A DNA stretch of 64,000 nucleotides from Candidatus Moanibacter sp. (lineage in GTDB: Bacteria > Verrucomicrobiota > Verrucomicrobiia > Opitutales > UBA2987). The number at the start of each line of letters is the position of its first letter. Within the stretch, counting starts at the first letter, position 1. The stretch lies in the NCBI GenBank assembly GCA_965215885.1, contig CBDCEW010000096.1:32001-96000 (forward strand), given 5' to 3'. Of the stretch, positions 26,756 to 31,537 are shown piece by piece. The position numbers and the translations under genes were made by a program. Under the pieces are notes generated by a model. It searched no databases. It had not been told where the DNA came from and was given only the letters and a program-made list of their open reading frames with translations.

Positions 26756-26972
26756 GAATTTGCCGGACGTTAGTACGTGTGTAGCGTGATTTGAAGCTGC
26801 CCCGGTCTTGCGCCGGGGTGCCGCACGTTTTACAGCTACAATCAGTCAATGGCACCGCGCTTACCCTCCGCCCCTTCTCGCCCCAGTGCGCCCGGACTGG
26901 GGCGAGAAGGGGCGGAGGGCATGGAAGCATCCGGTGTATAGCAAGAAGCGTGCACCACCCCGGCGCAAGACC

Positions 26973-28346
26973 CATAAGCGCTAACTTGTTTGCTGACCTG
27001 GGAATCTGACCTCTAACTGTGGTCGGCGTTGCCGTGGAGACTCTGCTAAGCCTTGAGCTATATCGTTCCAATTTTCTATCACTTGTCGCAAAGGCACAGC
27101 GGGATCGACGGCCCGCTGGAGTTGATGGAAGACGAAGGCAAACTCACGCCATCGACTCTGCTGTTTTTTCCGGCTCCAGGACATATCCCCAGGGGGAAAT
27201 AGAGATCGCACTTTGAATGATCTTCTCGGTGATCAGGGCCGCGAAGAGCTTGCCATAGAGCCACGCCTTGGCGCTTTCATCGTCATACTTAGGCAGATGT
27301 CCTAACTGTGCGATCTGTTTGAATCGTTTGAAGACCAGTTCCACCTGCCAGCGGATACGATACCATTCGAGCACCTCCAGTGCGGAAAAGAGCGATTCAG
27401 GAAAAGTCGTCAGCACCATGACGTATTCGGCGTAATAGAGCGTTTCGGGCATCAGCTTCTCGCCCCGCCTGCTGGCGATTCGCCGCAATCTCTTGTGGGC
27501 CATGGCGATCGCTTGCTCGCTTTTGCGGATGGCACACACCCGCGCTGGCAACGGGGGCTGATCCGATGCGGGCACCATGACTGGCCAAGCGCCCACCTTG
27601 CCACCGGCCCCGATCTGCTCCAGGCAGGCGGTCAGGTTCAGAACCTCTCCCCGAGGATCGAGCAGCCGTATGTTGTGCGGTGCCAGCCGTATACTTACAA
27701 AAGCCCCTTGGGAGGCTGCATATTGAAGCCCGGAAGCCTGGCAGTATCCCCGATCGGCGATCACGTAGTCACCTGCTGCCAGCGGAAACTGTCTAAGCGA
27801 CTCGCCGGTGCCTTCACCTTGCGCTGGCGTAAGTTTGAAAAAATCGCACGCCATCGAAGGAACTCGCAAGCTATAGTGCACACGCCACAAGCTGCCCGTC
27901 TTCCCGGGTTCCTTCACCATCGTCGCATCGATCAGACGAAACTCCCGTTGCCCCACCGCCCCCAAATCCAGGCCACGCTCGCGAAACAATGCCACGCACA
28001 GCGAATAAAGCCAGTCCTTGCACTTGCGCAGCCGCTTCAGCAACGCTACGTCTGACAGTTCCGCCAACTGCGCCTGGCGCGCACGCACCACGGTTTCGCG
28101 CAGCGAATACCCACATGCCAGGTGCACCATCAGAATCCTCAGCAACTTCCCAGGTGCCTTGTCCCGGCGCAATCCCTTCAACGCGTTGGTCTTCTTAGCC
28201 AATTCTTTCCATTGCGGCGGGAAAAAAGACATCAGCACGCTCCAGTCTTCATCCATCATGGTCGACCTCCCTTCAATTCTGCTAACCTGTTGCGGAAGTC
28301 CACAGCAGGAAATGCACTATGTCAAGCAAACAAGTTAGCGCTTATG
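26973..28346 (-). mobile_element. IS4-family element
   Basis: IR cataagcgctaacttgtttgct; 11-bp TSD ggcgcaagacc at 26962-26972 and 28347-28357. Confidence 0.92.
27144..28259 (-). CDS. IS4 transposase
   Basis: LIDAT, IADRGY and YRIRWQVELVFKRFK motifs. Confidence 0.92.
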   Translation of the reverse strand: MMDEDWSVLMSFFPPQWKELAKKTNALKGLRRDKAPGKLLRILMVHLACGYSLRETVVRARQAQLAELSDVALLKRLRKCKDWLYSLCVALFRERGLDLGAVGQREFRLIDATMVKEPGKTGSLWRVHYSLRVPSMACDFFKLTPAQGEGTGESLRQFPLAAGDYVIADRGYCQASGLQYAASQGAFVSIRLAPHNIRLLDPRGEVLNLTACLEQIGAGGKVGAWPVMVPASDQPPLPARVCAIRKSEQAIAMAHKRLRRIASRRGEKLMPETLYYAEYVMVLTTFPESLFSALEVLEWYRIRWQVELVFKRFKQIAQLGHLPKYDDESAKAWLYGKLFAALITEKIIQSAISISPWGYVLEPEKTAESMA

Positions 28347-28430
28347 GGCGCAAGACCGGGGCAGCCGGCAATCGAATGCAGGACGCTAAACAGGTACGGA
28401 CGTTACGTCCGACAGAAAACTGAGGTAGTC

Positions 28431-28436
28431 CGTCAA
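28431..28436 (-). promoter_or_regulatory. -35 box TTGACG of the IS110 circle-junction promoter
   Basis: Lies 17 bp from the -10 TATAGT (30110-30115) only when the ends are joined at the core. Confidence 0.8.
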
Positions 28437-28467
28437 GGGATTTTTTGAGTTTTTTCTCATGTTGTGT

Positions 28468-29778
28468 TTACAAGGCGTTGGCATTTGCTTGCTGAAGTCT
28501 TTTCCACACCGGTGAACCGGTGCGTTGGAGCGATTGGAGATACTTTTGCTCATCGTAGCGTTCGCTATTTTGCCAACAGCGAAACAGAATGCGGGTCCAC
28601 TTGAGAGCGAGGGCACGAAGAATGGTTTGGCGGGGTTTGCCCTGTTCTTTTTTGATCTGGTAAAAGGCCTTTGCCCAGGCACAGTTTCGGATCGAATGTT
28701 CGGCAAATTCAACGAAACTTTGCCGCACGAAGGTAGGAGCCGCCCACCGCCAGTTGACCATTCGTTTCGGTTGTCCGGTTCTTTTGTCCTGCCCGCTGTT
28801 GATCGTGACCGGAGCGGATCCATTCCACTGGGTCATGTTCTGGGCCGTTTCGAAGTGCGAACGATCGGTCCCGAACGCGCACAGCAACCGGGGACTCATG
28901 ACCTCGCCGGCTCCGGGAATGCCACTGAACACGGCTGCATCGGGATGGCTTCTGAATAGCTCCCTGATACGCTTCTCATACGCTTTGATCTGCGGGCACA
29001 GGGTCAAAAGCTGTCCGGCCAACGTCTGTGCTTTTCTGCTGGATGCTTCAATGATGGCTGCATCTTCGGTCAAGGCTCGTGCGTTACCGATCAATTCGAG
29101 ACGCTCCTGGATTTTGGCGTCACTGCGACAGTTGTGCTTATAGAAGAACTTTCGCAAGACACCCTCCGATGCTCTGTGCAGCTTCTTGAGGGTCGGCCAA
29201 CGCAATATAAAGTGCAGGCACAGGCCACTGCCTAGATCATCGAACAATTTCAAGACCAAAGGGTTATATTGCTTCAGACAACTGCCCAACTGCTGTTCGA
29301 GGCTGGTAGCCTGATCGACGAATCCACGGCGGTCCTCGCACAACAGGTTCAGCTCCCGTGTTTGGGCCGTGTCAGGTATGAAACATTTGGTAAAAAGCTC
29401 GGGATGTTTGAGGAAAAACTCCGCGTGTATTTGCGCATCGACCGGGTCGCTCTTGGCCCCTGATGGATACAGCGCCCGGCGATAATCCTTCGCCCTGGCC
29501 GCATGCACTGGATAGATATCGACAAACTCCAAGCCCATCAGAAAGTTGATCAACCCTCCTCGCTTCTGGTCCACCACCATGGCCATGCGCTTGCCCACGC
29601 TGGCATACTTTTCTCTCATCTCTACGGCAAATTCGTGCAAGCTGACCGCATCCTGCGCCACCTGTCGATGGGTCCCTTTTCCCGTTTCGCTCTCTATGAT
29701 CCACAGATCGTTTTTCTGATCCGCCCAATCAATTCCTATCACCACACTATATCGATTTGTTTTTTCCCTTTTCTGCAT
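28468..29778 (-). CDS. IS110 DEDD recombinase/transposase
   Basis: GIDWAD, KSDPVDA, IPGAG and APVTINSG (catalytic Ser region). Confidence 0.93.
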   Translation of the reverse strand: MQKREKTNRYSVVIGIDWADQKNDLWIIESETGKGTHRQVAQDAVSLHEFAVEMREKYASVGKRMAMVVDQKRGGLINFLMGLEFVDIYPVHAARAKDYRRALYPSGAKSDPVDAQIHAEFFLKHPELFTKCFIPDTAQTRELNLLCEDRRGFVDQATSLEQQLGSCLKQYNPLVLKLFDDLGSGLCLHFILRWPTLKKLHRASEGVLRKFFYKHNCRSDAKIQERLELIGNARALTEDAAIIEASSRKAQTLAGQLLTLCPQIKAYEKRIRELFRSHPDAAVFSGIPGAGEVMSPRLLCAFGTDRSHFETAQNMTQWNGSAPVTINSGQDKRTGQPKRMVNWRWAAPTFVRQSFVEFAEHSIRNCAWAKAFYQIKKEQGKPRQTILRALALKWTRILFRCWQNSERYDEQKYLQSLQRTGSPVWKRLQQANANAL

Positions 29779-29820
29779 CCCTTTGTTCCTTTAGTTTGTC
29801 TTTTTGCTTTTTTCAAAGGC

Positions 29821-30103
29821 ACTGGATGTCCAGGCGAAGTCCTTATAGTTGGATCCTGTTATGAGGATGTAAACTGAGTGTTCGTTTTCGGTCATCCAGG
29901 CAGGCCGTCCACTCGAAATTCTGTCGGAAGTCCTCTTCGGACTGATTCCTAAGTTCGTAGTGGACGGCTGCCTTTGAATATTTTCACCCTTAGCCAAACA
30001 ATCTCTTTGACCCATCGCCAACCACTGATCGGCCAAGTTATTCACAAAGGGGCCTCGCCGAGTTTTTCCTGCGGCTCCACTCGGCCCCTTGGATGAATAA
30101 CCT
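29821..30103 (-). ncRNA. IS110 bridge RNA: 5' hairpin, target-binding loop and donor-binding loop
   Basis: Three stem-loops whose internal-loop strands match the target and donor junctions (see findings). Confidence 0.88.
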
Positions 30104-30121
30104 GGAGCTACTATAAGATTC

Positions 30122-31270
30122 CTATGGCATTCCAAGCTCCTGACAGAAGGTATTAAAGGGGAGAATGCGTTGTCCCGTTTCTTCGTCACCAAAGTCGTTA
30201 TGACCGATGTGAACGAAGAAGAAACGGGGAATGTCGGTGCGTTGTCTGAAGTATTCAAACCTTGAGGAAGCTTTGGATTCGTTGAGCTTGCATTCTACAG
30301 CGAACTCAGCCTTCCCATCTCTTAATACGACAAAGTCGACTTCTCGTCTATCCGTATCACGGATGAAGCGAAGCTCCATTTCGAAGCCTTCTGTGTCTTC
30401 GATGTAACAGCAGTACTTTAGCAGTTGGCAGGCCACGAGATTTTCAAAACGGGCGCCCGCGTCGGATACTCGAGTCCAATCCCAGAAATAGAGCTTGTTC
30501 TCTTTCTTAACCGCACGGATCTTCTTGTGACCAAAGGGAGGAATACGGAAGACTGTATAGAGCCGCTCCAATATCGAGATCCAGCTCTCTATTGTTTCAT
30601 GGGCTACCCCTAACAGAAGACTGATCGAACGAATCGACAGAGGCGACCCAACACATTCAGGTAGATGATTAAGGAGGAGTTCGATTTTGGATACGTCACG
30701 CACCTGCTCCAATTCTCGCAGATCGTCATACACGACTCTTGCCGTGTATTCACGTAACCATCGTCTATGAAATCTGGCAGTCGCTCTAAATAGTGGTTCG
30801 GGAAACCCTCCAAATGATAGTAGCTGCTCCAGGTCGGAAATGGTAGGGCTTCGAGTGAGTTCCATGAGCGAGAGCGGGAAAAGCCTGAGAAAATGGTAAC
30901 GACCCTGAAGCGAATCACCACCTCTTCGATAGTAGTCGAGACGCGCCGAGCCGGTAACCAGAAATGAGATTTTGCTCTTATGTTTGTCGTAGTACCCCTT
31001 GACTAGATTTCGCCAACCTCCGAATTTGTGAATTTCGTCAAATATGACCAATGGCTGCTTCGATGGTAGATGGCCGTCGAGAATGCGCTTTCGGTCAGCC
31101 AGCGAATCCCAGCTGAGGTAGGCAGGATGAGATTCTTTTGCGTTTTCCGGCCGGAGACATTGCAGGGCCAAGGTTGTCTTACCCACTTGGCGTGGCCCTC
31201 CCACAATGACCATTCTGTTTTCCAAATCGGCTTTGACTGCTTCCAAGAGATATCTCTTAACTGGAATCAT
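30122..31270 (-). CDS. AAA_14 ATPase with DUF4143 domain
   Basis: GPRQVGKTT, FDEIH, TGS..DSLQGR, GGFPE and EVDFV...VECK motifs. Confidence 0.92.
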   Translation of the reverse strand: MIPVKRYLLEAVKADLENRMVIVGGPRQVGKTTLALQCLRPENAKESHPAYLSWDSLADRKRILDGHLPSKQPLVIFDEIHKFGGWRNLVKGYYDKHKSKISFLVTGSARLDYYRRGGDSLQGRYHFLRLFPLSLMELTRSPTISDLEQLLSFGGFPEPLFRATARFHRRWLREYTARVVYDDLRELEQVRDVSKIELLLNHLPECVGSPLSIRSISLLLGVAHETIESWISILERLYTVFRIPPFGHKKIRAVKKENKLYFWDWTRVSDAGARFENLVACQLLKYCCYIEDTEGFEMELRFIRDTDRREVDFVVLRDGKAEFAVECKLNESKASSRFEYFRQRTDIPRFFFVHIGHNDFGDEETGQRILPFNTFCQELGMP

Positions 31271-31537
31271 AGTATGAGTAATTTCGAAACCACTCTAAGA
31301 TACTCATGAGTAATTTAGAGTAAAGTCTAAAATACCCATGCTATCCATCTGTGCAGACCCTGGAAGAGTTATGTTCTCGGGGTCTGCCAGAGATCGTCGA
31401 ATCGGAAGCCTGTCCTGAGCCAGTCGAATGAATAAACCCCTTTCCCGGCCTGAGCTTGTCGAAGGCCTACACGTGTGGCGGATGATAACGGCACTTGCGC
31501 TTACTGACCGGCAACCTCAATTTCATCGGATCGAGCC

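Follow-up and report, generated by a model that had tools for sequence, protein, structure and literature searches.

The joined ends of an IS110-group bridge-RNA insertion sequence in the genome of Candidatus Moanibacter sp. very likely constitute a junction promoter (Pjunc), the activity of which is predicted from the DNA. The element lies in the window, i.e., the whole 64,000-nucleotide stretch analysed, and its features are collected in Table 1. The joined ends read TTGACG-17-TATAGT; the -35 and -10 boxes are contributed by opposite ends, the spacing falls within the 16 to 18 bp of the Pjunc layout, and the boxes point inward. The promoter layout was confirmed, and the junction-promoter reading is supported in silico.

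Table 1. Coordinates of the element and of its promoter, RNA and protein features in the window
Feature	Position	Strand	Basis or detail
IS110-family element, counted with one CT core	28414..30115, 1702 bp	minus	10 full copies share the exact stretch
17-nt spacer, GACTACCTCAGTTTTCT	28414..28430	minus	ends in the CT core (28415-28414)
-35 half, TTGACG, in the right end	28431..28436	minus	G006, family A and family B have TTGAC(A/G)
A6 tract, 4 nt upstream of the -35 box	28441..28446	minus	sequence
Recombinase gene, 436 aa	28468..29778	minus	PF01548 and PF02371
Left-end non-coding region encoding the bridge RNA	29779..30109	minus	fold and guide segments
Donor-binding loop guides	29842..29878	minus	CUCAGUUU (29878-29871) and ACUAUAAG (29849-29842)
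Target-binding loop guides	29921..29951	minus	UAGGAAUC (29951-29944) and UCCGACAG (29928-29921)
Predicted start of transcription (A, 7 nt past the -10 box)	30103	minus	inferred from sequence
-10 half, TATAGT, first six bases of the left end and also the right donor half-site	30110..30115	minus	sequence
CT core copy, left flank (target side)	30116..30117	minus	sequence and copy comparison

Element, ends and target sites

The genome under study (G000, 105 contigs) contains 10 full copies of the element (1704/1704 nt, 99.82-100% identity), along with one partial copy at the start of a contig and one 193-nt fragment. On the minus strand, the element comprises three parts: 337 nt of non-coding left end, an ORF of 436 aa and a right end of 54 nt. 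The ends were identical in all 10 full copies, from CT/TATAGT to TTTTCT/, where the slash marks the boundary. The target of nine copies was AGGAAT-CT-GTCGG(A/T)C, and the ends of these copies were blurred because the target sequence is common to those sites. The tenth copy (C84:54652-56355) was located at a different site, CAGTTTA-CT...CT-TATGGGG, with unrelated flanks. Its similarity to the other copies stopped exactly at both CTs, which fixed both ends to the base. The terminal sequences, TATAGTAGC... and ...CAGTTTTCT, do not form inverted repeats, and all 10 copies were flanked by CT. When the C84 site was emptied in an open-frame test, the frame spanned the join with 0, 1 or 2 CTs alike.

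The element has the characters of the IS110 group, namely, a DEDD domain, a serine Tnp domain, no terminal inverted repeats, a guide RNA and site-specific insertion. The recombinase matched PF01548 (DEDD_Tnp_IS110; E = 1.2e-17, residues 14-173) and PF02371 (Transposase_20; E = 2.3e-09). In an alignment of 22 homologues, D17, D20, D111, D114 and S328 were invariant, as was the S328-G329 pair, and the second acidic position, read from the same alignment, was D here against E in the consensus. The similarity to the solved recombinases of IS621 and ISCro4 was remote (E = 1.7e-4, by phmmer, and 8.8e-5, respectively) and covered the C-terminal part only, residues 251-413, indicating that the clade of the element is far from the studied ones. 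A search of positions 27000-31500 against Rfam returned no family at E up to 1.

The target, AGGAATCTGTCGG, is present in the window as an occupied copy at 30123-30116 / 28413-28402. Unoccupied copies in the genome numbered 134 for the 15-mer and 256 for the 13-mer, the latter against approximately 0.2 expected by chance in 6.4 Mb. Only nine copies of the target word carried the element, and the sequence around the word was little conserved. Some target copies formed palindromic pairs, as read from the listing, and several were located just upstream of tRNA genes. The target word looks like a REP-like repeat.

The site of the C84 copy (locus L010/L114, outside the window) resembles the joined ends of the element itself (ACCTCAGTTTA-CT-TATGGGGAGCT). 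By analogy with what is described for IS621 (10.64898/2026.08.31.748434), this site would fit a donor-donor "half-match" off-target insertion. The left flank of this copy carries TTTCCA 16 nt from TATAGT (9/12), and a weak promoter might therefore persist there even in the integrated state. Its right flank (99.7% over 1500 nt) also follows the partial copy at the start of C84. A contig of the metagenome run X2 had a loose end at window position 30117, where the left end adjoins another flank; a few bases upstream, this flank has a target word that is intact and unoccupied. A related strain with one more off-target insertion is the probable source of this joint.

Near the element, a DDE_Tnp_1 (IS4/IS5-like) transposase gene (27144-28259, minus strand) is located within 26796-28398 of the window. 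The gene lies between inverted repeats, which pair 26971-26994 with 28325-28348 and 26796-26814 with 28347-28365, and the left arm is split by about 156 nt holding two hairpins. The genome has about 28 occurrences, 83-92% identical, of the outer 48 nt (28351-28398), and the IS110 element lies about 15 nt outside this repeat. Elsewhere, outside the window, a further copy on contig C104 (near 324316) stops about 30 nt short of a tRNA-Arg gene, on the upstream side, and its outward TTGACG faces the tRNA. This insertion may have cut the tRNA-Arg gene off from its own promoter.

Promoter layout of the joined ends

The sequence-only reading had placed TTGACG in the right end, followed by exactly 17 nt ending in the CT core, and TATAGT at the start of the left end. 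All of these were found in place, with a further CT directly preceding TATAGT. It had also proposed that the joined ends give a promoter directed into the bridge RNA and that this layout supports the boundaries. The direction and the support for the boundaries both held: the guides in the left-end RNA match target and donor, and the 17-nt spacer arises only if the junction has exactly one CT. The claim that the promoter is assembled only on the excised circle is better put as assembly only when the ends are joined. The hexamers were indeed split in all 10 integrated copies, but a head-to-tail tandem would join them as well.

The joined 1702-bp circle, scanned by script with the same rules as the linear region, contained exactly one sigma70-like site on either strand, and this site was at the junction (10/12, spacer 17). 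In the linear region 28200-30400, no sigma70-like site was detected on either strand, versus 1.4 +/- 1.0 in shuffles. Sites of at least 10/12 occurred 403 times in 12,723,680 position-strands genome-wide (3.2e-5). At this rate, and with about 18 start positions that place the junction between the hexamers, approximately 6e-4 sites are expected by chance for this element alone. Each hexamer is common by itself, yet it is hardly credible that two near-consensus hexamers were brought together here by chance, given this expectation and the recurrence of the same layout in the relative G006 and in two further families, A and B, in which the ends were set independently.

The flanks of the 10 integrated copies provided no matching partner hexamer. 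The best -35 candidate upstream of TATAGT reached at most 4/6, in 2 of the 10 copies, and the best -10 candidate after TTGACG reached at most 3/6. Other IS families build hybrid promoters with flanking boxes, and the right-end TTGACG could be such an outward -35 box, forming hybrid promoters with flanking -10 boxes and activating neighbouring genes. Its outward orientation and the copy near the tRNA-Arg gene would agree with this. However, insertion is site specific and the flank is thus GTCGG, in which the best -10 match was 0-2/6 in nine copies and 3/6 in the C84 copy, making this explanation very improbable.

The A6 tract upstream of the -35 box is possibly UP-element-like. Across 16 junction types from relatives (described below), the 10 nt upstream of the -35 box were about 56% A by our own count, in positions outside the search pattern. 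Presumably, such an A-rich tract upstream of the -35 box resembles the proximal UP-element consensus.

Bridge RNA guides and relatives

Folding of the 325 nt between the predicted start and the ATG gave -117.2 kcal/mol (z = -5.93), and none of 100 shuffles was as good. In the predicted fold, two 5' hairpins are followed by the target-binding and donor-binding stem-loops with internal loops, and the first stem begins at nt 2 counted from 30103. In the target-binding loop, UAGGAAUC has the same sense as the left target and UCCGACAG is antisense to CT plus GTCGGA. In the donor-binding loop, CUCAGUUU has the same sense as the left donor half-site, CTCAGTTT, which is located in the spacer, and ACUAUAAG is complementary to CTTATAGT. 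Since ACUAUAAG is antisense to CT plus the right donor, the -10 box is also the right donor half-site. This guide logic is the published bridge-RNA logic, which confirms the CT core and the ends.

The protein was found in 2 of 41 genomes searched (G000 and 40 relatives), i.e., in G000 and in G006, which belongs to the same family but another genus and has 26 protein matches at 75-80% identity. The relative in G006 is 79% identical in protein, and the element is about 80.6% identical in DNA. TTGACG-GACCACCTCAGTTTTCT was present in all 10 loci read in G006, with one substitution in the spacer and 17 nt to CT, and CT/TATAGT was present in nine of them, the tenth being truncated at the left end. 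The target in G006 is AGGAGT-CT-GTCGGAC. The RNA guide there is changed from AGGAAUC to AGGAGGC, and its A-to-G change follows the AGGAGT target.

A contig search with the single protein returned no relative. An alignment-based contig search returned 80 loci with 35-47% identity, mostly in Verrucomicrobiota and Acidobacteriota assemblies. Two families from named assemblies of these phyla, with ends set where copies diverge, had the CT core and the same layout at about 45% protein identity: family A (eight loci) with TTGACA-17-TATAGG and family B (nine loci) with TTGACG-17-TATAGT. The ends were set without a motif only in G000, G006 and families A and B. Judged from these motif-independent ends, the junction-promoter arrangement is kept in the relatives.

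A wider, pattern-anchored count covered 82 loci, 63 of which had enough flank on both sides. TTGACN-N5-8-CTCAG followed the stop codon in 45 of the 63, with an implied spacer of 17 in 37 loci and 18 in 8. A -10 hexamer was present in the left-end zone, likewise in 45 of the 63, and both boxes with the same core dinucleotide were present in 32, giving 16 distinct junction types. These wider counts are circular at the pattern positions (TTG..., CTCAG, the core and TATAG), as the pattern was drawn from the first families.

The four guide segments were located at homologous places in the four families with motif-independent ends and changed with target and donor. The left-target guides, in the same sense, were UAGGAAUC, UAGGAG, CGUCCC and UCGUCC, and the antisense guides for CT plus the right target were UCCGACAG, UCCGACAG, UCCCGGAG and CGACGAG. 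The left-donor guides, in the same sense, were CUCAGUUU, CCUCAGUUU, CUCAGACC and ACUCAGAUG, and the antisense guides for CT plus the right donor were ACUAUAAG, ACUAUAAG, CUAUAAG and CUAUAAG. Guides that track target and donor in four families indicate that the promoter points into a real bridge RNA.

The double role of the -10 box bears on an alternative explanation, in which the conserved hexamers belong to the recombination site, where they would help to recognise the donor or to bind the recombinase and would resemble a promoter only in sequence, and the element is expressed by read-through or from a weak internal promoter. The donor guide ACUAUAAG is the complement of TATAGT, and the donor-binding loop repeats the CTCAG found in the spacer. 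A gene in the same orientation (30122-31270) lies upstream, its end 6 nt away from the element; read-through is described as enough for IS621 excision (PMC13626964), and ISPpu9 is described as having no junction promoter (PMC12288879). Conservation of the -10 box could come from recombination alone, in its capacity as right donor half-site, so that only the -35 box and the spacing are free of this objection. The -35 box, however, is 18-23 nt from the junction, outside the guide-matched stretches. Moreover, TTGAC(A/G/T), a spacer of 17 nt (sometimes 18 nt) and the A-rich tract are kept, in contrast to the variable first 6 nt of the spacer, and the element has no other promoter-like site. On balance, this alternative appears unlikely, and the junction promoter is the preferred reading.

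In the same four families, TATAG was constant to the right of the core and the four bases to the left varied (TTTT, TTTT, ACCT and ATGT). This pattern would be explained if promoter function and donor recognition were locked onto the same six bases in this deep-branching clade, a proposal from the sequence comparison that we put forward only tentatively.

Transcription, mechanism and known systems

Host promoters were compared with the -35 box at the tRNA genes of G000. TTGAC was located upstream of 11 of 45 tRNA genes versus 6.4% of random windows (p = 1e-4); the 11 cases include the IS right end itself, and two apparently stem from a duplication of the region upstream of a tRNA-Asp gene. The strict E. 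coli-type two-box consensus was not enriched upstream of these genes (1/45 versus 2.7% of random windows). The host thus appears to use a TTGAC-type -35 box.

Junction words of 20, 24 and 30 nt were absent from the G000 assembly, and exact junction words were absent from G006. The sole match with one mismatch in the search of these two genomes was the left boundary of the C84 copy, which matches because its flank resembles the right end. All 24 public runs with the element are kept as contigs; the Logan contigs of the four examined contained no joints, and contigs drop rare forms. None of the sources searched, i.e., the assembly, the run contigs, G006 and the metagenome contigs, is expected to hold a rare circle. 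An exact junction 20-mer in one metagenome contig had AT-rich flanks matching neither end and was rejected as a chance match.

In the RNA library X18, a contig over the left end extends 8 nt beyond it, into the target flank (to 30123), indicating that it came from an integrated copy or from DNA and not from the junction. Contigs of two RNA-library runs from one study break at 29823-29829. In these two runs, left-end contigs exceeded ORF contigs in word depth, although contig depth cannot rank the parts. The co-oriented upstream gene encodes an AAA_14/DUF4143 ATPase, and the target word includes its TAG stop codon. Low-level read-through from this gene into the bridge RNA is plausible.

The proposed mechanism is as follows. 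In the integrated element, the -35 box TTGACG with its A-tract at the far right end points outward, and the -10 box TATAGT lies 1.7 kb away at the left end. Lacking partner boxes, the integrated element would be nearly silent except for read-through from neighbours. The recombinase would then join the right and left ends via a single CT, in a circle or a head-to-tail tandem, and bring the boxes 17 bp apart. The housekeeping RNA polymerase of the host would start near 30103 and transcribe the bridge RNA, probably reading on into the recombinase gene. The resulting burst of RNA and enzyme would drive insertion into the next copy of AGGAAT-CT-GTCGGAC, by which the promoter would be split again. 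Circle formation, promoter activity, the start site and cotranscription of the recombinase are inferred.

A sigma70 promoter needs double-stranded DNA. Two preprints argue that excision is mainly single strand or copy-out (10.64898/2026.08.31.748434; 10.1101/2025.10.25.684509), and by analogy the intermediate here may be single stranded. If excision proceeds in either of these ways, the promoter would need second-strand synthesis or the tandem form.

Junction promoters are described in the IS3, IS21, IS30 and IS110/IS1111 families (PMC12288879). For IS621 and five orthologues, Durrant et al. 2024 describe an RNA that starts from the junction promoter (PMC11208160). Hiraizumi et al. 2026 describe the IS621 junction promoter again and state that read-through suffices for rare excision (PMC13626964). 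As described for IS621, an IS110-group element of E. coli, the present element has the -35 box in the right end, the -10 box in the left end and the CT core between, so that the predicted promoter spans the joined ends. It also shares with IS621 a left-end guide RNA upstream of the recombinase gene with target-binding and donor-binding loops, and a target that is a repeated short genomic sequence. In contrast to IS621, the left end is 337 nt rather than 191 nt, and the predicted fold has two 5' hairpins before the loops rather than one 5' stem-loop (PMC11208160). The IS621 promoter is reported to start RNA, whereas the element studied here is known from its sequence.

ISPpu10 of Pseudomonas putida is described as having a strong Pjunc, and the same source describes none for ISPpu9 (PMC12288879). 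The present element resembles ISPpu10 in its weak or absent native promoter, in a hybrid promoter on the joined ends (strong in ISPpu10, predicted here) and in its REP-like repeated targets (PMC12288879). ISPpu10 differs in host and sequence, and its minicircles and promoter activity are reported as measured (PMC12288879). A junction promoter is also cited for ISEc11 (PMC13626964 and PMC12288879), and the promoter split between two ends is shared with ISEc11 and the IS1111 group; the guide RNA of that group is described as downstream of the recombinase gene (PMC12288879), whereas here it is upstream. The circles and tandems of IS3, IS21 and IS30 similarly take the -35 box from one end and the -10 box from the other (PMC12288879). 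Unlike the present element, these families are described as having DDE transposases and inverted repeats and no guide RNA.

Judged from its sequence, the element is an ordinary example of the switch already published for IS621, ISPpu10 and ISEc11, adding little beyond annotation and opening no new question. The analysis provides base-exact assignments of ends, target, donor and guides for an active-looking, undescribed bridge-RNA element, which has 10 copies in G000 and, in the relative G006, about 26 protein matches. If the -10 box and the donor are locked together, natural donor reprogramming would be confined to the left half-site. The layout holds very far from IS621, in Verrucomicrobiota and Acidobacteriota assemblies, which supports the switch being old and widespread in the family.
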